Assembly: GCF_024700885.2 (NCBI RefSeq)
Contig: NZ_CP117016.1
Reading direction: 5' to 3' (one strand)
Source: Escherichia coli
GTDB lineage: Bacteria; Pseudomonadota; Gammaproteobacteria; Enterobacterales; Enterobacteriaceae
DNA: 64,000 bases
Shown here piece after piece: positions 43,344 through 55,236 of this stretch (position 1 is its first letter; each line of letters starts with the position of its first letter). The notes under the pieces are model-generated. The model was not told the DNA's origin. It searched no databases and worked only from the letters and a program-made list of their open reading frames with translations. A program made the translations under genes and the position numbers.

Positions 43344-43595
43344 ATAAATCTCCATTTATCATTTGTGTCGTAAATATGTAATCCATGCAAAATACGTCAT
43401 TTAAAGCTGGCGTTATCATAATTGGGAAATTGCGACTTTAATAAGTGGAAGTGTGAGCGGAACGAGCCATTTTATTAGGCATTTGTGCTGAAGAGGGAAA
43501 AGCACGCGAATTTATTATCTCCGTAAATAATATGAGGTGTTTTATATATTTATTATATATATTGTACTTCGGCAAATACTGAGCACAATTTATCA

Positions 43596-43913
43596 ATGCA
43601 ACCGATGTTTCTTTTTAAAAAACGTACCGGAGCAATGGGCGGTCATGTCGCTGGCACCGCAGGATTCTGCGTTGCTGTGCCAGCCTTTTATTCATGGTCA
43701 ATGAGTGAGGGGATTGATAAAGAAACCAGGTCGTCAGAGCGCACTGATTATCCGCATTACGCCAGTGAAGTTGCACTGGCTTTTGGTTCACGAGTGGTTG
43801 GCCTCGAACTGGCAAAAATGATTGTGGATGCGTGGCTGGGCGCGCAGTACGAAGGCGGTCGTCATCAACAACGCGTTGAGGCGATTACGGCAATAGAGCA
43901 GCGGAAAAATTGA
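43596..43913 (+). CDS. Hypothetical 105-aa ORF at the site where the K-12 als/rpiR/rpiB island is absent
   Basis: ATG-initiated ORF with E. coli-like codon usage but no obvious Shine-Dalgarno; not recognised by me. Confidence 0.3.
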   Translation: MQPMFLFKKRTGAMGGHVAGTAGFCVAVPAFYSWSMSEGIDKETRSSERTDYPHYASEVALAFGSRVVGLELAKMIVDAWLGAQYEGGRHQQRVEAITAIEQRKN

Positions 43914-44345: not shown

Positions 44346-45104
44346 TCACTCCACCCCAATCTCCATCCCATCAAACCCCGCCTCAAACCCTGACGGCAGT
44401 GTGTTCTCCATCAGCCACGCATCAAACTGATGGCTGATATGTGTCAGAACCACGCGCGGCGAGCGGATAACTTCATTCAGCGCCAGCACGGTGTTTAAAT
44501 CACAGTGATTACGCGGTGCATCCTCGCGCGGTGGGTGGCTGCAATCAATCACCATCACCTGCGGCTGATTATTGCGTAAAAATTTCAGCGTTTTTTCCGG
44601 CAGGCCTGCGGTGTCAGACAGCCACGCCACCCGGCTATGTGCCGTTTCCAGTAGATAGCCGAAAGTGAGTTTCGAATGGTTGAGCGGCAGCGGCGTGACC
44701 TGTAATCCCTGCAAATCAAACATCACAAATGGCTCCACCGTGTGGCTGAAATCAAGCAGGCCCGGATGTTTAAACAGATCGTCGCAGCCCTGTTCATCCG
44801 GCGGGCCGTAGACCGGGATCGAATCGCCCACGCCCCAGCGCAGCGGAAACAGCCCCTGCACGTGATCCATATGGTAGTGCGTCAGCAAAAACTGCTGGAA
44901 CGATCCGGGCGACCAGCGATCGGCGAGATCGTGCAGCCCGGCGTCGATCAGGGTGATCGCGTCGTTAAACTTCACGACGCCGCTGCATGGCTGGCGGCGA
45001 TACTGCGGTGAGCGCCGCGCTCTGACGCAGGCCACGCACTCACAGCCCCATGCGGGAACGCCCTGTGCGCCGCCAGTGCCGGTGAGCGTGAGGGTCAGGC
45101 TCAT
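44346..45104 (-). CDS. phnP: Phosphoribosyl 1,2-cyclic phosphate phosphodiesterase
   Basis: 252-aa ORF with metallo-beta-lactamase HxHxDH motif ([10 protein letters not shown]). Confidence 0.93.
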
Positions 45105-45105
45105 G

Positions 45106-45540
45106 TTACAGCGCCTTGGTGAAGCGGAAATGGCTCTGCTCGTAGCCTTCGCGCAGATAGAAACGGTGCGCGTCGTGGCGCTTCACGTTGGTGGAAAGCT
45201 CGGTCATTTCGGCCCCGGCCTGGCGGGCTTCTTCTTCTGCCCATGCCAGTAATTTACTGCCGATGTTCAGACCGCGCGCCTGCGGCATCACCACCAGTTC
45301 CTGAATTTCGCCGATCCAGTTGACATGATGCAGATGAAACTGCAAATGCAGGCCGATCATGCCGACAACTTCGCTATCCAGCAACGCCAGATGGTAGCGC
45401 ATGTTCGGATCGCGCAGATTGGCGTTAAACCCCACGCGAAACGCATGGTGGTCAAACTCCGCCTGTTTTAGCTCACAAATCAGCGCGTAAACTGCGTCGG
45501 TGTCGTACTGCGTAGCCGGGCGAAGCTCACAAGCAGGCAT
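45106..45540 (-). CDS. phnO: Aminoalkylphosphonate N-acetyltransferase (GNAT)
   Basis: 144-aa ORF; position and length match PhnO. Confidence 0.92.
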
Positions 45541-46084
45541 GGTGTTTCTCCTTCTGATGAATCAGCGTCAGCAGCTTGTCGACCGACTGGCGCAGGCTGC
45601 CGTCATTATTGAGCGTAAGACAATCCTGAGGAGTATAGCGGGCAGCGCGTGCCAGTCGGGCGTTAATTTCACTGGCATTTTCACGACCACGGTTTTCCAG
45701 GCGCTGGCGCAGGATCTCCGGCGAAACCTGTAAACAAACGGGCAGCAGCGCCGATTGATAGCGCGCCCGCGCCTGCGGCAGATGGGCGCGTGAGCCGTTG
45801 ACCACCACGTCAAATCCAGCGTGCAGCCAGAGGTCAATCTCGACGCCGATGCCATAATACAGGCCGTTGGCGTGCCAGCTTAAGGCCAGAAGGTTCTGCC
45901 CCGCGCGGGTAAAAAACTCCTGCTCGCTCAGGGCGATATGGTTTTCACTTCCGGCGCTGGCGTCGCGCGTGATGTAGCGATGCGCTACCAGTAGCTGAGT
46001 TTGTTCCCGCTGGCGGAGTTCCGTCAACAGACTGTCTTTTCCGGAGCCAGAGGCCCCCATTAACCAAATCAGTTTTCCCGTCAT
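45527..46084 (-). CDS. phnN: Ribose 1,5-bisphosphate phosphokinase
   Basis: 185-aa ORF with P-loop GASGSGKDS. Confidence 0.92.
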
Positions 46085-47220
46085 CAGAACACCCTTTTAC
46101 CCTGACGCCAGACGTGGTCGATATGAATGTGGTTGCCCTTGCGATGCGCCAGCACCAGGTCGGCGCGTTTGCCCTCGCCAATCACCCCGCGATCCTGAAG
46201 ATTAAGCGCCTGCGCCGGATTTTTAGTCACCAGCTTCACCGCCTGCGGCAGCGTAAAGCGGTTGCTCTCGTCATCGGCGACGCGAAATGCCGCATCGAGC
46301 AGGCTGGCGGGGTAGTAGTCGGAAGAAAGGATATCCAGCAGGCCAAGCTGCGCCAGTTCACTGGCCGCCACGTTACCGGAGTGCGAACCGCCGCGCACGA
46401 TATTCGGCGCGCCCATCAGCACGTTCATGCCATGCTTGCGCGAGGCTTGTGCCGCTTCGAACGTGGTGGGAAATTCGGCGATCACGCTGCCAAGCTGGTG
46501 GGATTCGGCAACGTGGGCGTGCGTGGCGTCATCGTGGCTGGCGAGGGCAATGTGTCGCGCGCGGCACATTGCGGCGATGGTTTCGCGATTAGGTTGTGAC
46601 CAGCGTGCGGCGAGCGCCAATTGCTCTTCTTCGTACTGCTGCATCTGCGCATCGGTGAGGGAATATTTGCCCTGATAATATTCGCGATACTTCTCGCGAT
46701 TGGCGAACTGGCGCTGGCCCGGCGAGTGGTCCATCAGCGATACCAGCGTCACCGGTTCGCGCTGCACCAGTTTTTCAAACAGCGGCAACGTGGTGTGGTG
46801 CGGCAGTTCGCAGCGCAGATGCAGACGGTGCTCGGCGCGGTTGACGCCGCGTTTCTGCGTCTCTTCGATGGCGTTGATCATCTTCTCAAGATTCTCCAGC
46901 CGATCGCCGCCGTCGCGCACATCACCAATCGCCACGGCATCCAGTACGGTGGTGATGCCGCTCGCCACCATCAGCGCGTCGTGGCTGCTCATCGCCGAGT
47001 GGGCAGGCCAGTCAACTTTCGGGCGCGGGGTGAAGAATTTATCCAGATTATCGGTATGCAGCTCAATCAGCCCCGGTAGCAGCCAGCCGCCTTCGCCGTC
47101 CATCGCCTCCGGCAGGCGGCTCTGGCTTTCGGCAAAGGCGCGAATTTCGCCATCCTGCACCTCCAGTGAACCGTGTACCACTTCGTTTTCCAGCACCAGT
47201 TTGACGTTATTGATAATCAT
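46084..47220 (-). CDS. phnM: C-P lyase pathway triphosphate diphosphohydrolase (amidohydrolase fold)
   Basis: 378-aa ORF; position and length match PhnM. Confidence 0.92.
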
Positions 47221-47897
47221 GAAGAGGCTCCCATCGGGTGCAGGCGGTCGGCGACGTCATTGCGTACGGCTTCGTCATGGAAGATACCGACGATGGCTGC
47301 GCCACGGGCTTTGGCTTCGCGAATGAGTTCCACCACCGCGGCGCTGTTTTTAGCGTCCAGCGAGGCGGTGGGTTCATCCAGCAGCAGAATGGGGTAGTCG
47401 ACGATAAAGCCACGGGCGATGTTGACGCGCTGCTGTTCGCCGCCGGAGAAGGTCGATGGTGCCAGGTGCCACAGGCGTTCAGGCACGTTCAGGCGCGTCA
47501 GTAATCGGGCGGCTTTAGCGGCGCAGGCTTCACGCGGTACGCCGGTATCGAGCAGAGGCTGCATCACCACTTCCAGTGCCGAAATACGCGGGATGACGCG
47601 CAGAAACTGGCTCACCCAGCCGATGGTGGTTTTGCGGATCTCCACCACTTTGCGGGCTGGCGCGGTGACCAGGTCTACCCATTCCTCACCGTGTTTGATC
47701 TGGATTTGCCCTTCGTCGGGCAGATAGTTGGCGTACAGCGAGCGCAGCAGGGTTGATTTTCCGCTGCCGGAGTGGCCGTGAAGCACCACGCATTCGCCTG
47801 CGTTGACGGTGAGCGAGGCACGTTGTAAGACGTGCAGGCGCACGCCGTTTTGCTGGTGCAGGATGAAGGTTTTACTGACGTTTTGTACGTTAATCAT
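47217..47897 (-). CDS. phnL: C-P lyase ATP-binding subunit PhnL
   Basis: ORF track 47217..48011; trimmed to [15 protein letters not shown] giving 226 aa; Walker [10 protein letters not shown]. Confidence 0.9.
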
Positions 47898-47917
47898 TTT
47901 TCGCCTCGTGGTTCGGG

Positions 47918-48003
47918 TGTCGGATGCGACGCTGACGCGTCTTATCCGACCTACGGGGAGCGCCTTTGTCGGCCGGATAAGGCGTTTACGCCGTATCCGG
48001 CAC
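47918..48003. repeat. Pair of REP elements between phnK and phnL
   Basis: gtcggatgcgacgctgacgcgtcttatccgac and gtcggccggataaggcgtttacgccgtatccggcac, inverted relative to each other. Confidence 0.6.
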
Positions 48004-48007
48004 TGGC

Positions 48008-48766
48008 TCAATTCTGCAAAACCGATGACACCAGCAACTGGGTGTACGGGTGGTGCGGGTCGTCGAGCACGCGGTCGGTTAACCCACTCTCCACCACTTG
48101 CCCCTGTTTCATCACCAGCAAACGGTCCGCCAGCAGGCGGGCGACGCCTAAATCATGGGTGACAATCACCACCGCCAGATTCAGCTCCACCACCAGGCCG
48201 CGCAGCAGGTCGAGCAGGCGCGCCTGCACCGATACATCCAGCCCGCCGGTTGGCTCGTCCATGAACACCAGCTTCGGATGCGTCACCAGGTTGCGGGCAA
48301 TCTGCAAACGTTGCTGCATACCGCCGGAAAAAGTGGTCGGCAGGTCGTCGATCCGGTTGGCGGGAATTTCCACCTCTTCCAGCCACTTCTGCGCGGTGGC
48401 GCGGATGTCGCCGTAATGACGCGCCCCGGTCGCCATCAGCCGCTCGCCGATATTGCCGCCTGCCGACACCTGGCGGCGCAGGCCGTCGAGCGGATGCTGA
48501 TGTACCACGCCCCATTCGGTGCGCAGCAGGCGACGGCGGTCGGCCTCGCTCATCGCATACAACGAACGATTCTCGTAGCGAATCTCCCCCTGCTGCGGCG
48601 TCAGGCGCGCGGAGATTGATTTCAGCAGCGTGGTCTTCCCGGAGCCGGATTCCCCGACGATGCCCAGCACTTCCCCCGGCCATAAATCAAAAGAGACATC
48701 GCTAAAGCCTTTGCCCGGCGCGTAAAGGTGGGTCAGGTTATTGACCGAAAGTAACGGTTGATTCAT
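48008..48766 (-). CDS. phnK: C-P lyase ATP-binding subunit PhnK
   Basis: ORF track 48008..48796; trimmed to [15 protein letters not shown] giving 252 aa; Walker [10 protein letters not shown]. Confidence 0.92.
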
Positions 48767-49608
48767 TGGCTTTTCGCCTCGCTCTGTTGGCGGCAATAAT
48801 CGGTATCGGAGCAGACAAACATGCGGTTTCCGGCGTCATCCAGCACCACTTCGTCGAGATAGCTGTGGGTCGATCCGCAGATGGCGCATGGTTCATCCCA
48901 CTGCTGAACGGTGAACGGGTGATCGTCGAAATCGAGGCTTTCCACGCGGGTAAACGGCGGCACCGCATAGATGCGCTTTTCGCGCCCCGCGCCGAACAGT
49001 TGCAGGGCGGGCATCATGTCCATTTTCGGGTTATCGAATTTCGGGATCGGCGACGGATCCATCACGTAGCGGCCGTTCACCTTCACCGGATAGGCGTAGG
49101 TAGTGGCGATATGACCGAAGCGGGCGATATCTTCATACAGCTTCACCTGCATCACGCCGTACTCCTCCAGCGCGTGCATGGTGCGGGTTTCCGTTTCGCG
49201 CGGCTCGATAAAGCGCAGCGGTTCGGGGATCGGCACCTGGAAAATAATGATCTGATCTTCCGTCAGCGGCGTTTCGGGGATGCGGTGGCGGGTCTGGATA
49301 AGCGTCGCATCGTCCGTGCGCTCGGTGGTGTTCACCCCGGTCACGCGCTTAAAGAAGTTACGGATCGACACTGCGTTGGTGGTGTCGTCTGCACCCTGGT
49401 CAATCACCTTCAGCACGTCGCTTTCGCCAATCACGCTGGCGGTGAGCTGTATGCCGCCGGTTCCCCAACCGTAGGGCATCGGCATCTCGCGCCCGCCAAA
49501 CGGCACCTGATAACCGGGGATCGCCACCGCTTTTAAGATGGCGCGGCGGATCATGCGTTTGGTCTGCTCGTCGAGGTAGGCAAAGTTGTAGCCGCTCAGA
49601 TTAGCCAT
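48763..49608 (-). CDS. phnJ: C-P lyase catalytic subunit (radical SAM-like, Cys cluster)
   Basis: ORF track 48763..49797; trimmed to MANLSGYNFAYLDEQTK giving 281 aa; C-terminal CxxCxxxxxxxxxC-type cysteines. Confidence 0.92.
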   Translation of the reverse strand: MANLSGYNFAYLDEQTKRMIRRAILKAVAIPGYQVPFGGREMPMPYGWGTGGIQLTASVIGESDVLKVIDQGADDTTNAVSIRNFFKRVTGVNTTERTDDATLIQTRHRIPETPLTEDQIIIFQVPIPEPLRFIEPRETETRTMHALEEYGVMQVKLYEDIARFGHIATTYAYPVKVNGRYVMDPSPIPKFDNPKMDMMPALQLFGAGREKRIYAVPPFTRVESLDFDDHPFTVQQWDEPCAICGSTHSYLDEVVLDDAGNRMFVCSDTDYCRQQSEAKSQ

Positions 49609-50665
49609 GGTTCTGCTCCTGTTGCAGACGTTTGAGTAGCTCCAGTTCGGCCTGGAAATCGACGTAGTGGGGGAGTTTGAGGTGCGAGACAAAGCCTGCG
49701 GCTTCGACGTTGTCGGCATGCGCCAGCACGAACTCTTCATCCTGCGCCGGGCCTGTCGCGTGCTCGCCGTACTCCGGAGCCTGCAACGCACGGTCAACCA
49801 GCGCCATTGCCATCGCTTTGCGCTCGCTCATGCCGAACACCAGTCCGTAGCCGCGCGTGAAGTGCGGCGGCTCATCCGGCGGGTCGATAAAACCGTTGAC
49901 CATTTCACATTCGGTCATCAGCAGTTCGCCGACGTTCACCGCAAATCCCAGCTCTTCCGGCACAATCGACACGTCGATATAGCCACTGCGGATTTCGCCT
50001 GCGAACGGATGATTGCGTCCGTAACCACGCTGGGTGGAGTAGGCCAGCGCCAGCAAATAGCCTTCGTCGCCGCGCATTAATTGTTGCAGGCGGGAGGAGC
50101 GTGAGCAGGGGTAAACCGGCGGCGTGCGGGTGATGTCATCCGGCTGTGCGCCGCTATCTTCTTCAAATTTCGCCAGCCCCTGACGCGCCAGCAGGCTGAA
50201 AACGTGCGGCGACGGGGATTGTTCGCTGTCGGCTGTGGTCAGCGTTGGCGCTTCGCCGTTTGCCAGCAGGGTGAAATCGAGCAGGCGATGGGTGTAGTCG
50301 TAGGTTGGGCCAAGCAACTGGCCGCCGGGAATATCTTTATACACCGCTGAAATACGCCGTTCGAGACGCATCCCGGTGGTGTCGAGCGGCTCGCTTACCG
50401 CAAGCTTCGCCAGCGTGGTACGGTAGGCGCGCAGCAGGAAAATTGCTTCGACGTTATCGCCGCTGGCCTGTTTCAGCGCCAGCGCCGCCAGTTCGCGGTC
50501 GGCAATGCCGCCTTCGGTCATCACGCGATCTACTGCAAGATTAAGCTGCTGTTCAATCTGGGCGACGCTCAGTTCAGGCAAATCTGTATCGCCCCGGCGT
50601 CGGCTCTCTTGCAGGGCGTGGGCGGCGTCGATCGCCTTTTCGCCCCCTTTCACGGCAACGTACAT
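49601..50665 (-). CDS. phnI: C-P lyase core complex subunit PhnI
   Basis: ORF track 49601..50785; trimmed to [16 protein letters not shown] giving 354 aa. Confidence 0.92.
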   Translation of the reverse strand: MYVAVKGGEKAIDAAHALQESRRRGDTDLPELSVAQIEQQLNLAVDRVMTEGGIADRELAALALKQASGDNVEAIFLLRAYRTTLAKLAVSEPLDTTGMRLERRISAVYKDIPGGQLLGPTYDYTHRLLDFTLLANGEAPTLTTADSEQSPSPHVFSLLARQGLAKFEEDSGAQPDDITRTPPVYPCSRSSRLQQLMRGDEGYLLALAYSTQRGYGRNHPFAGEIRSGYIDVSIVPEELGFAVNVGELLMTECEMVNGFIDPPDEPPHFTRGYGLVFGMSERKAMAMALVDRALQAPEYGEHATGPAQDEEFVLAHADNVEAAGFVSHLKLPHYVDFQAELELLKRLQQEQNHG

Positions 50666-51249
50666 CAGCACACCTCCACATGAGTGGTTCGCGGGATAGC
50701 CAGCAGGCGCTCGCCGCAGGTCAGGATCAGGTCGATGCCGAGCGGGAACGGGTGCGGGCGCTCGGTGAGTTCGTGCAAAATGCACTCCGGTAGCTGCGGA
50801 GCGATCATTCGTTCTTCGGCAATACCCGCGCCAGTAAGGCGCAGCATGCGCCCGCCGCTCAGGCTGGCGACCTGTAAAATCAGCGTCGCGCCCGCTTCTG
50901 GCGCAACGGCGGTGCCGGTGGAAAGGGCGTTGAGCTGTTCGCTGGAAATCGCCTCATCCGTTACCGCGAAGGTCGCCTGTTCCGGCTGGCTGACCAGCGG
51001 CGCGTTGGTATGAAAACGCAGGCTCTGGCTGACGATATCGTTACTTAATGGCGTAGAAAGCCACACCGGCGTGTCGTTATCGGCCAGCGTCAGCAGCACG
51101 CTGGTGGTGGCGATATTCAGCGGCTGCCAGCCGCGCTTGAGCTGATGCAGGGCGACAATCACGCCCGGCTCGCTCATGGCCTTTAACAGGCGACGAAAAC
51201 TGTGCTGGGCATCCTGCACGGGAAGCATAAAAGCAGTTTCCAGGGTCAT
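50665..51249 (-). CDS. phnH: C-P lyase core complex subunit PhnH
   Basis: 194-aa ORF; position and length match PhnH. Confidence 0.92.
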
Positions 51250-51698
51250 GCGTTATCTCCGCGAACCATCGTAAAGAAGTCGACCCGGCTGGCGTTCACT
51301 TCGGCCTGGCGTGCGGCAATGCGTGCCATACGGTCAGCGTCCAGCGGGGCAATAAGGGTTTCTGATAAGTTTTGAAAATGGCGGGTTTGCTGCATCAGCG
51401 CGTCAATCAGCGCGCAGCGTTCGGCGTGCTGTTTGTCGCGCCCCAGCACCCAGCTGTAGCCGAGCGTGCCGTCAGTCAGGCGTACGGCGGCGCGGGTGAG
51501 CGTGGCGTCGCCAGCAAAAAAGCGTTCGCCGGTGCCACCCATCCGCGCCTGAATCTGCACCAGGCCGGTTTCAGCGGCGCGGATCACTTCATAGTCGGCG
51601 GTGATGTTCAGCGCCTTCAGGCGGGCTGCCAGTTCAGCCGGTTGGCTGTGTGCCAGTACGGACATCCAGTGCTGGCGGGTCGCGGTATCTGCGTGCAT
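51246..51698 (-). CDS. phnG: C-P lyase core complex subunit PhnG
   Basis: 150-aa ORF; position and length match PhnG. Confidence 0.92.
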
Positions 51699-52424
51699 TC
51701 AGTGCTCCATAGTGAATTCAATCATGTCGGCGCGCGTCAGGCTGACGGAGTACTCCGCCGGGCTGCTTTCACCGTCACGGTGGTTAAGGGTGCGCACGCA
51801 CAGCAGCGGCGACATATTCGGGATTTCAAGACGCTGGCACTCTTTGGCCTGGGCGCGGCGGGCGCTGATCCGCGTCTGGCTGCGGCGCAGCGCAATCCCC
51901 GTTTGCTCGCGCAGAAAATCGTGCAGCGAGCCGCTGTCGAAGCGTTGCAGCGTCGGCCAGAGGGTGAGGTCCGCAAAGTAGTGGTCGATTAAACAGAGCG
52001 CGACGCCGTTGACCCGGCGCAGGGTGCGCAGGTGGATAACGTTCTCGCCCTCGGTTATCCCCAGCGCGTCAGCGACGTGACCGGAGGCCGGGCGCAGCAC
52101 AGACAGCAGTTTTTCGCTGGTGGGATGGCTGCCCTGATCCAGCAGGTTCTGGCTAAAACGCGCCTGGGCGTTGAGCGGGTAATCGAACGGGCGCATCAGC
52201 ACCAGTACGCCGATGCCCTGACGGCGCTGTACCCAGCCTTTTTCCACCAGTTGGTCGATGGCACGGCGCAGGGTGTGGCGATTCACCTCAAAGCGCGCCG
52301 CCAGTTGCTGCTCGGCGGGAAGATAGTCGCCGCAGCGGTAGTGTTGACGAAGCTCCTGCTCAAGTTTTGCGGCTATCTCCTGATAGCGTGTTGGGTAGCT
52401 GGTCGGATGTGTAGACAAGTGCAT
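51699..52424 (-). CDS. phnF: GntR-family repressor of the phn operon
   Basis: ORF track 51699..52433; trimmed to MHLSTHPTSYPTRYQEIAAKL giving 241 aa; HTH plus UTRA domain layout. Confidence 0.9.
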   Translation of the reverse strand: MHLSTHPTSYPTRYQEIAAKLEQELRQHYRCGDYLPAEQQLAARFEVNRHTLRRAIDQLVEKGWVQRRQGIGVLVLMRPFDYPLNAQARFSQNLLDQGSHPTSEKLLSVLRPASGHVADALGITEGENVIHLRTLRRVNGVALCLIDHYFADLTLWPTLQRFDSGSLHDFLREQTGIALRRSQTRISARRAQAKECQRLEIPNMSPLLCVRTLNHRDGESSPAEYSVSLTRADMIEFTMEH

Positions 52425-52444: not shown

Positions 52445-53224
52445 TCAGATAAAGTGCTTACGCAACCGTTGAGAGAGGAAATCCAGCAGGCTGACCGTGA
52501 CGATAATCAGCACCATCAGGGCGCAGGTTTGCTGGAACTGGAAACCGCGAATCGCTTCCCACAGCGTGACGCCGATCCCGCCCGCGCCGACCATGCCGAC
52601 GACGGTCGCCGAGCGGACGTTGGATTCGAAGCGATAGAGGGAGTAGGAGATCAGCAGCGGCATCACCTGTGGCAGCACGCCGTAGAGGATCTCTTCGAGC
52701 TTGTTGGCACCGGTGGCGCGAATGCCTTCCACCGGGCCAGGTTCAATTGCTTCTACCGCTTCGGAAAGCAGCTTGGAGAGCACGCCGGTGGTGTGAATAA
52801 ATAGCGCCAGCACGCCAGCGAACGGACCGAGACCGACGGCGACCACGAACAGCATGGCGAAGACCATCTCGTTAATGGCGCGGCAGGCGTCCATCAGGCG
52901 GCGAACGGGCTGGTAAACCCACCACGGCACCAGGTTTTCGGCGCTCATCAGGCCGAAGGGGATGGAGAGAACGACTGCCAGCGCGGTGCCCCAGACGGCG
53001 ATTTGCAGCGTGACGGCCATTTCGGTGAGGTAATCCTGCCACTGGCTGAAATCGGGCGGGAAGAAGTCGGCGGCGAACGTCGCCATGTTGCCGCCGTCTT
53101 TAATCAGCGTGAGCGGGGCCATTTCCGCGCCCTGCCACGAGACGACCAGCACGGCGAGAACAACGGCCCAGCTCAGAAGCGAGAACCAGCTGCGTTTGGG
53201 TGGGGCGATGGTGATGGTTTGCAT
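52445..53224 (-). CDS. phnE: Phosphonate ABC transporter permease, apparently intact single ORF
   Basis: ORF track 52445..53287; start at [16 protein letters not shown] giving 259 aa uninterrupted. K-12 MG1655 carries a frameshifted cryptic allele as I recall. Confidence 0.88.
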
Positions 53225-53240
53225 GTTTGGCTCCGGTCTG

Positions 53241-53326
53241 TAGGCCGGATAAGGTGCTTGCACCGCATCCGGCATCAACGTCTGCACATTGTCGGATGCG
53301 ACGCCGTGGCGTCTTATCCGACTTAC
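53241..53326. repeat. Pair of REP elements between phnE and phnD
   Basis: taggccggataaggtgcttgcaccgcatccggca and gtcggatgcgacgccgtggcgtcttatccgac. Confidence 0.6.
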
Positions 53327-53329
53327 GAT

Positions 53330-54346
53330 TTACTGCACCGCTTTACTCACCGAACTCATCGCGCTTAACGCGTTGTTCAGGCGGTCCAGGTCATCCAGTT
53401 GCGCCTGAATGGCGGTGGCTTTTGCCAGCTTGTCCTGCTCATTCAGCCCTTTATTGCCTTTCACGCCCTGCATCTCTTTAAACAGCGCGAGCTGGCGAAT
53501 CGGTACCAGTTGCAGGTCGCTGGAGGCGCGGAACGGGGCCCAGCCCAGGCGTTCCAGCACCGCTTTCTCTTCCGGCGTTTTGCCGTAATTCATAAAGAAG
53601 TCGTAGATCTTGTCTTTGGTGGTTTCGGAAAGATTCTTGCGCCAGACGATCGGATCGCCTGGGATCAGCGGCGACTTCCAGATCACCTTCAGTTCTTTCA
53701 GCTTCTCTGGCGCGGAGGTTTTCAGCTTGTCGAGGTTTTCGGTGTTGTTGGTCGCCACATCCACCTGCTTGTTGGCGACGGCCAGCGCGTTGGTTTCATG
53801 CCCGGCGTTGACGGTGCGTTTGAAGTCGCTGGCGGAGATATTGTTTTTGGCGAAGACGTAGTAACCAGGGACGAGGAAGCCGGAGGTAGAGTTAGGATCG
53901 CCATTGCCGAAGGTGAGATCTTTACGCTTCGCCAGCAGATCGTTCAGGTTGTTGATCGGACTATCTTTGTTGACGATCAACACGCTCCAGTAACCCGGCG
54001 ATCCATCCGCCGCGACCGTCTGGGCGAAGACCTGACCGTTGGCGCGATCCACCGCTTCCATCGCAGACAGATTGCCGTACCAGGCGATATCCACTTTATT
54101 GAAGCGCATCCCCTGGATAATGCCCGCGTAGTCCGGGGCAAAGAAGGCGTTGACCTTCACGCCCAGCTTCTTCTCCATATCCTGCAAGAACGGCGTCCAT
54201 TGCGGTTTCAGGTTTTGCTGTGATTCCGTTGAAATAATGCCGAAATTCAGCGCCTTTTCCTGCTCTTCGGCGTGCGCCGGGCTTAACAGGGTGCTGAGGC
54301 TGAACATGCTGGTGAAGGCCAGCGAGGCAATTATCTTAGCGTTCAT
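53330..54346 (-). CDS. phnD: Phosphonate ABC transporter periplasmic binding protein
   Basis: 338-aa ORF with signal peptide MNAKIIASLAFTSMFSLSTLLSPAHA. Confidence 0.93.
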   Translation of the reverse strand: MNAKIIASLAFTSMFSLSTLLSPAHAEEQEKALNFGIISTESQQNLKPQWTPFLQDMEKKLGVKVNAFFAPDYAGIIQGMRFNKVDIAWYGNLSAMEAVDRANGQVFAQTVAADGSPGYWSVLIVNKDSPINNLNDLLAKRKDLTFGNGDPNSTSGFLVPGYYVFAKNNISASDFKRTVNAGHETNALAVANKQVDVATNNTENLDKLKTSAPEKLKELKVIWKSPLIPGDPIVWRKNLSETTKDKIYDFFMNYGKTPEEKAVLERLGWAPFRASSDLQLVPIRQLALFKEMQGVKGNKGLNEQDKLAKATAIQAQLDDLDRLNNALSAMSSVSKAVQ

Positions 54347-54370: not shown

Positions 54371-55159
54371 TCAGGCAGCTTTCGCGTTTTCTTCGACGCG
54401 GTTGATGCTGCGGTAGAGATGGTCAAAACGTTCGTTATCAAACTGTTGGCTGCTGCCGTCGTAGAAGACGTGCCCCTGGCGCAGGGCGACGATGCGTTCG
54501 CAGTAGCGCAGGGCGTAATCCACCTGATGCAGCGTGACGACCACGGTAATGCCGTCGTTCTGGTTAATGTCGCGCAGGGTGTCCATCACGATGCGCGCTG
54601 ATTCCGGGTCCAGCGAGGCGATGGGTTCATCGGCCAGAATCACCTTCGCCTGCTGCATCAGCGCACGGGCAATCGCTACACGCTGCTGCTGGCCGCCGGA
54701 GAGGGTGGAAACGCGCTGATGGGCAAAGTGCACCATGCCAACGCGGGTCAGCGCCTGTAACGCGCGCTGTTTCTGCTCGCGGGTGAAGTAGCTAAAACAG
54801 GTGCGCCAGAACGGCGTGCTGCCGAGCGCGCCAATCAGCACGTTCTCCAGTACGCTCAGGCGATTCACCAGGTTGAATTGTTGGAAGATGTAGCCGGTGT
54901 TGGCGCGGCTTTTGCGGATATCGCGGGCCAGGCGGCCTTCGCGCTGGACTGTGCGACCCAGCAGCTCGATATGGCTACCGGCAGATTTATCGCCGGTAAT
55001 CAAACCGCTTAAGTGACGTAAAAGGGTGGATTTGCCGGAACCCGACGGCCCAAGCAGAGCCACCATTTCACCGTGATGAATGTTCAGATCAACCGCGTGC
55101 AGCGCCTGATGCTGATTGAAGGTTTTGGCGAGCTTCTCGACACGGATAATCGTTTGCAT
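54371..55159 (-). CDS. phnC: Phosphonate ABC transporter ATPase
   Basis: 262-aa ORF with Walker [10 protein letters not shown] and signature LSGGQQQR. Confidence 0.95.
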
Positions 55160-55200: not shown

Positions 55201-55236
55201 ATTGTGACGATTTTGTTAACTAAAAGTGACTAACGG
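55201..55236 (-). promoter_or_regulatory. Candidate Pho box (PhoB site) of the phnC promoter
   Basis: Minus-strand reading gttagtcacttttagttaacaaaatcgtcacaataat contains three CTGTCAT-like 7-mers at 11-bp phasing, about 45-80 bp upstream of the phnC ATG. Confidence 0.5.

Follow-up and report, generated by a model that had tools for sequence, protein, structure and literature searches.

Does this E. coli strain carry a working phosphonate importer, or the disrupted version known from K-12? The question turns on phnE, which encodes the permease subunit of the PhnCDE phosphonate ABC importer. The E. coli B form of the locus, phn(EcoB), supports growth on phosphonate; K-12 lacks this ability owing to an 8-bp duplication in phnE, and proficient mutants have lost that duplication (PMC3463581). 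We examined the gene within a window of 64,000 nt, the whole stretch of DNA analysed here. The window very probably carries an ordinary functional (ON) phnE allele within a complete phnCDEFGHIJKLMNOP operon.

The reading frame is a genuine, uninterrupted phnE gene. Both the ORF listing and the sequence give a single 780-nt ORF on the minus strand, running from an ATG at 53224 to a TGA that ends at 52445, and its translation has 259 codons plus the stop with zero internal stops. The preliminary description had called exactly this uninterrupted ORF at these coordinates, and the call holds. PhnE scores 311.5 bits with the NCBIfam equivalog model TIGR01097 (cut-off 216.7), the match extending over profile positions 8–251 of 252, and residues 88–258 match the binding-protein-dependent permease domain, Pfam BPD_transp_1 (PF00528), with 91.8 bits. 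In strain 1190 (NZ_CP023386.1), DNA that is 100% identical to the window gene is annotated by RefSeq as an intact 780-nt phnE CDS. The ORF is therefore phnE and not a chance reading frame. It follows phnC and phnD on the same strand (Table 1). Residues 166–185 form an EAA-type loop, the element by which ABC importer permeases dock their ATPase for coupling.

Translation most plausibly begins at ATG 53224. An alternative 280-aa version would start from GTG 53287; we rejected it because that codon lies inside the REP-like palindromes of the phnD–phnE spacer, and because ATG 53224 is preceded by a well-spaced GGAG. RefSeq and the TIGR01097 alignment likewise fit the 259-aa form. As a separate observation, the REP-type motif GCCGGATGCGGCG has 16 matches in the window against 4.15 expected, and matches also occur in the phnK–phnL spacer (47919–48001). 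In the MG1655 record, the annotation of the phnE1 pseudogene (839 nt) begins further upstream, inside the corresponding phnD–phnE spacer.

A single octamer copy is the only indel between the window gene and its K-12 counterpart. Pairwise alignment with the K-12 and E. coli B alleles, the check that the preliminary description had proposed, returned one indel: an 8-bp unit of consensus GCTGGCG(T/C), present twice in the window and in REL606 and three times in K-12. The window and REL606 tract reads GCTGGCGTGCTGGCGC, two copies in the order GCTGGCGT-GCTGGCGC. In K-12 (ER2796 and MG1655) the tract is GCTGGCGT-GCTGGCGT-GCTGGCGC, occupying 24 nt at ORF nt 406–429 (GCTGGCGTGCTGGCGTGCTGGCGC). The 8-bp insertion that the preliminary description named for K-12 corresponds to this third copy. 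It lengthens the gene to 788 nt, shifts the frame at residue 141 and brings in a stop at codon 190, and RefSeq lists the K-12 gene (b4583, the phn(EcoK0) allele) as a frameshifted pseudogene. K-12 thereby loses the remainder of the permease domain. Because the EAA loop lies downstream of the point of frameshift, it is lost in K-12 and kept in the window. The K-12 allele belongs to the same gene and operon, and removing the 8 bp from K-12 phnE in silico yields a protein identical to window PhnE.

The window gene instead matches the E. coli B allele. PhnE is identical to that of REL606 at 259 of 259 residues, and the REL606 and strain 1190 proteins share one accession, WP_001193500.1. The REL606 gene has the same 780-nt length and two-copy tract, and its neighbours in a 14-gene operon are likewise phnD and phnF. 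The two alleles differ by 15 nucleotides in phnE, all synonymous; the operons are 95.9% identical overall, and their Pho-box regions differ at three positions. Published reactivation of the transporter involved the same element: deletion of GCTGGCGT at ORF 407–414 reactivates PhnCDE, with octamer and position matching those found here, and K-12 revertants were put down to spontaneous slippage (PMC6469041). Reversible switching of phnE in K-12 is credited to Iqbal et al. 2004, as cited in that paper. Judged by its sequence, the window phnE is a functional allele of the phn(EcoB) type. This state is already known: papers of 1991 and 2004, to which PMC6469041 and PMC3463581 refer, documented it.

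The rest of the operon is equally complete. Annotations of strain 1190, REL606 and MG1655 supplied the coordinates by which we located the 14 phn genes in the window. All 14, from phnC to phnP, match REL606 and MG1655 in length, in line with the preliminary description, which took them to be full-length, and each begins with ATG, ends with a stop codon and is free of internal stops; an internal frameshift that it might have overlooked was sought and found neither in phnE nor in the other 13 genes. Amino acid identity to REL606 is lowest for PhnP (240/252, 12 changes) and highest for PhnE, with eight changes each in PhnM (370/378 identical) and PhnN (177/185). At the nucleotide level the whole operon is 95.9% identical to REL606 and 95.75% identical to K-12, a difference of about 4%. 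Elsewhere in E. coli, the phn operon can carry other lesions: some genomes have IS4-family insertions within its span, or a PhnI that is annotated differently and covered to only 98%. A broken phn operon can therefore arise by routes other than the octamer.

Table 1. Features of the phn locus in the window (strand as read in the window; the dot marks a feature without strand).
Feature	Position	Strand	Evidence or remark
phnG-H-I-J-K-L-M-N-O-P, C-P lyase pathway and accessory genes	44346..51698	-	full length; amino acid identity 95–99.6%
phnF, GntR-type operon regulator (241 aa)	51699..52424	-	240/241 identical to REL606 and MG1655; annotated in strain 1190
phnE CDS, permease subunit of the PhnCDE phosphonate ABC importer	52445..53224	-	intact, predicted ON state
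EAA-type coupling loop, PhnE residues 166–185	52670..52729	-	motif search on translation
Octamer tract GCTGGCGT-GCTGGCGC, two copies, ORF nt 406–421	52804..52819	-	pairwise alignment and regex location
GGAG Shine-Dalgarno, 6 nt 5' of phnE ATG	53231..53234	-	upstream sequence ...GACCGGAGCCAAAC-ATG
Two REP-like palindromes, phnD–phnE spacer (53244–53273 and 53291–53322)	53244..53322	.	inverted repeats
phnD, periplasmic phosphonate-binding protein (338 aa)	53330..54346	-	full length; private T310A
phnC, ATP-binding subunit (262 aa)	54371..55159	-	260/262 identical to REL606, no internal stops
Putative PhoB-binding site (Pho box), phnC promoter, GTTAACAAAATCGTCACA	55203..55220	-	predicted by matrix and K-12 homology

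One nucleotide distinguishes the window from strain 1190. The two agree at 20,779 of 20,780 aligned bases, and the sole difference, at position 53419, turns PhnD codon 310 (53417–53419) from ACC, threonine in 1190, REL606 and MG1655, to GCC, alanine in the window. Every phn gene is otherwise nucleotide-identical to that of 1190. The exact window PhnD sequence occurs on one 5.26-Mb contig only in a collection of about 15 billion proteins. The protein matches the E. coli PhnD structures 3p7i, 3qk6 and 3quj with E=4e-206. Around residue 310 its C-terminal tail also varies at positions 297, 300 and 312 among K-12, B and the crystallised protein, and matches to more distant phosphonate- or phosphite-binding proteins end at query residues 226–287, short of 310. 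T310A could in principle alter ligand handling; since it falls in a variable tail, past the part that aligns with distant binding proteins, we judged it unlikely to affect PhnD function and set it aside as a disabling change.

The D-allose operon is absent from the window: about 6.8 kb of REL606, from alsK to alsR together with the first 313 nt of rpiB, is missing, and about 208 bp of unrelated sequence stands in its place at 43568–43775. A remnant ORF (43596–43913, plus strand) encodes a chimeric 105-aa RpiB fragment that joins roughly residues 31–53 to residues 106–149 and lacks the middle of the protein; for strain 1190, RefSeq nevertheless calls it an intact 'RpiB/LacA/LacB family sugar-phosphate isomerase'. 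Strain 1190 and about 23 other genomes, O166:H15 isolates among them, have a phnE 100% identical to that of the window and share its als-less yjcS–yjdP junction. Altogether 1,569 of 5,426 complete genomes have the same junction, which is therefore a common polymorphism.

The phnC promoter carries a predicted PhoB-binding site. GTTAACAAAATCGTCACA sits 61–44 nt 5' of the phnC ATG and is homologous to ATTAACCAAATCGTCACA, the motif identified 5' of K-12 phnC by PhoB ChIP-seq (PMC10294691). We scored it with a PhoB log-odds matrix built from the other 58 motif instances in Table 1 of that study. By this measure, which is a heuristic and not an affinity, the window site scores 14.4 bits and the K-12/B site 12.7 bits. 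The 58 training sites span 6.5–23.4 bits with a median of 15.1, a range that includes the window site. GTTAACAAAATCGTCACA is also the best of the 127,966 18-mers on both strands of the window, and weaker 11-bp-phased repeats reach upstream from it to 55242. The Pho box that the preliminary description had placed upstream of phnC is thus present, and by the matrix measure undegraded, given its homologous place, its top rank and a score no worse than that of K-12 and B.

Substitutions in the promoter do not appear to weaken this site. In the 141 nt 5' of phnC the window departs from K-12/B at several sites, and three of these fall within the Pho-box region (ATCTGTTAGTCACTTTTAATTAACCAAATCGTCAC in K-12/B against ATCCGTTAGTCACTTTTAGTTAACAAAATCGTCAC in the window). 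In the classical Pho-box register, CTGTTAGTCACTTTTAAT, the T→C change falls on a consensus position. We dropped the idea that the three substitutions reduce PhoB binding: the 58-site matrix does not favour the classical register, agrees with the ChIP-seq study on where the phnC site lies, and gives the window variant the higher score. In K-12, phnC RNA measured 32,470 in the wild type and only 13 once phoB was deleted (PMC10294691); among five promoters tested, that of phnC bound PhoB with the lowest affinity and was the last to be induced (PMC4447250). By analogy with K-12, the window promoter should likewise be induced through PhoB; PhoB, PhoR and other trans-acting factors are encoded outside the window. 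The next-best matrix matches in the window are two overlapping, 11-bp-phased sites on the minus strand at 20279–20307, inside the 5' end of yjcF (GATAACCACTCTGTCACA, 13.4 bits; TGTCACAAGTCCATCACA, 14.1 bits). The K-12 sites of PMC10294691 list no PhoB ChIP-seq peak near yjcF.

An intact phnE is the majority state in E. coli. The gene was found in 5,394 of 5,426 complete genomes, and we typed its copy number with two short queries for which the 8-bp indel moves a match into another identity band. A 110-nt query from the three-copy K-12 allele matched 1,009 records at 95% identity or above and 4,379 at lower identity, where all sampled rows span 102 nt and so have two copies. The converse 102-nt query from the two-copy window allele matched 4,383 records at 90% or above and 996 in the 80–90% band, where full-length sampled rows span 110 nt and so have three. 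The two-copy ON allele thus accounts for about 81% of complete E. coli (about 4,380 records) and the three-copy OFF allele for about 19% (about 1,000 of about 5,390). The preliminary description was right that phnE is intact; the interest it implied by contrast with broken K-12 is weak, because intact is the state of most complete genomes and the finding is correct but ordinary. The exact window PhnE protein is found on at least 1,000 contigs, and the window phnE DNA is at least 99% identical in 24 genomes only, all 24 of them two-copy.

The three-copy allele extends beyond laboratory K-12 and, in the rows sampled, keeps to K-12-like backgrounds. Among the sampled carriers are isolates from humans, pigs, chickens, a frog and wastewater; phnE of FDN-9, a chicken-gut isolate, is 788 nt long and flagged as frameshifted. 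Of the 1,009 three-copy matches, 1,001 reach at least 99% identity to K-12 across the 110-nt query. Among 60 rows spread down the ranking of matches to the K-12 operon, the three-copy state was confined to operon haplotypes with a K-12 identity of 99.5% or more; haplotypes at 99.2–99.4% are already two-copy. The locus shares a trait with contingency loci driven by slipped-strand mispairing: the reading frame depends on a tandem repeat within the ORF, and strains vary in its copy number. Frequent switching would also scatter the OFF and ON states over many lineages, a pattern absent from the 60 rows, which are a sample and not a phylogeny. We therefore disfavoured frequent natural phase variation across the species, all sampled three-copy rows being on K-12-like haplotypes. 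The distribution suggests, from a sample and not a tree, that the three-copy allele is inherited within a K-12-related clade without frequent species-wide switching. The OFF allele seems to be stably inherited in its roughly 19% of genomes, gut and farm isolates among them, apparently on one operon haplotype. It is a speculative and improbable further step that loss of PhnCDE is selectively maintained in that clade, for example against import of toxic phosphonates, while lineages like that of the window stay ON.

Two rival readings put the functional state in doubt. An operon intact on paper might still be phenotypically impaired, whether by T310A, by the promoter substitutions, by the PhnM, PhnN and PhnP variants or by a defect outside the window such as in phoBR. 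T310A lends this some weight as the one change that sets the window apart from strain 1190 over 20,780 bp and as part of a protein confined to one contig; so do the three changes around the Pho box, the divergence of PhnP, PhnM and PhnN from REL606, and a K-12 phnC promoter that is already a low-affinity PhoB target (PMC4447250). Against it, threonine to alanine is a conservative change at a residue in a polymorphic tail beyond the distant-homologue alignment, and the promoter substitutions raise the PhoB-matrix score. The genes are otherwise those of strain 1190, and some 24 isolates match the operon at about 100%; since these come from humans, chickens, a dog and water, the haplotype is one that persists in nature. 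We regard impairment as very unlikely. Scarcely credible is the reading of the two-copy tract as a snapshot of a mixed ON/OFF culture at a slippage-prone repeat, or as a collapsed three-copy assembly. Strains do differ in how many copies of the tandem octamer they carry, and slippage has been invoked for K-12 revertants (PMC6469041). Yet all 24 of the closest relatives, independently assembled, have two copies, as do about 81% of complete genomes; the sampled three-copy rows are at least 99.5% K-12-like, against 95.75% for the window operon; and a tract of 16 or 24 nt is easily resolved by any sequencing platform.

A third alternative accepts a functional system and questions its use. PhnCDE can also carry orthophosphate (PMC6469041), and its main role might be auxiliary transport of inorganic phosphate or other phosphorus compounds in place of dedicated phosphonate uptake. 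Its orthophosphate uptake kinetics are comparable to those of PitA, and a pitA pst ugp triple mutant can subsist on it (PMC6469041). Such transport would nonetheless add to phosphonate uptake without replacing it, and an intact full set of C-P lyase genes makes sense only with phosphonate catabolism; we think this role improbable as the main one. The preferred reading, an ON allele in a complete operon, would work as follows. With two octamers, the frame runs through the whole permease domain, EAA loop included. Under phosphate limitation, PhoB~P would bind the Pho box 5' of phnC and turn the operon on; PhnD would bind phosphonate in the periplasm, PhnE and PhnC would import it, and the PhnG–P C-P lyase pathway would then free the phosphorus. 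Expression, transport and growth on phosphonates are predicted here by extension from the E. coli B and K-12 literature. For transport in particular, we infer activity of window PhnE from its amino acid identity to the E. coli B protein and the growth proficiency of phn(EcoB) (PMC3463581).

The strain should be able to use phosphonates, a prediction supported at the level of genotype, since an uninterrupted phnE lies within a complete phn operon. It is to be scored Phn+ in metabolic reconstructions, and homology-based annotation should not transfer the K-12 pseudogene state to it. The result has little importance beyond correct annotation; its by-product is the pair of allele frequencies, about 81% against about 19% in 5,426 genomes. 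With the two-copy allele in the majority, an intact phnE is the default expectation for E. coli, and it is a broken phnE that is worth flagging.
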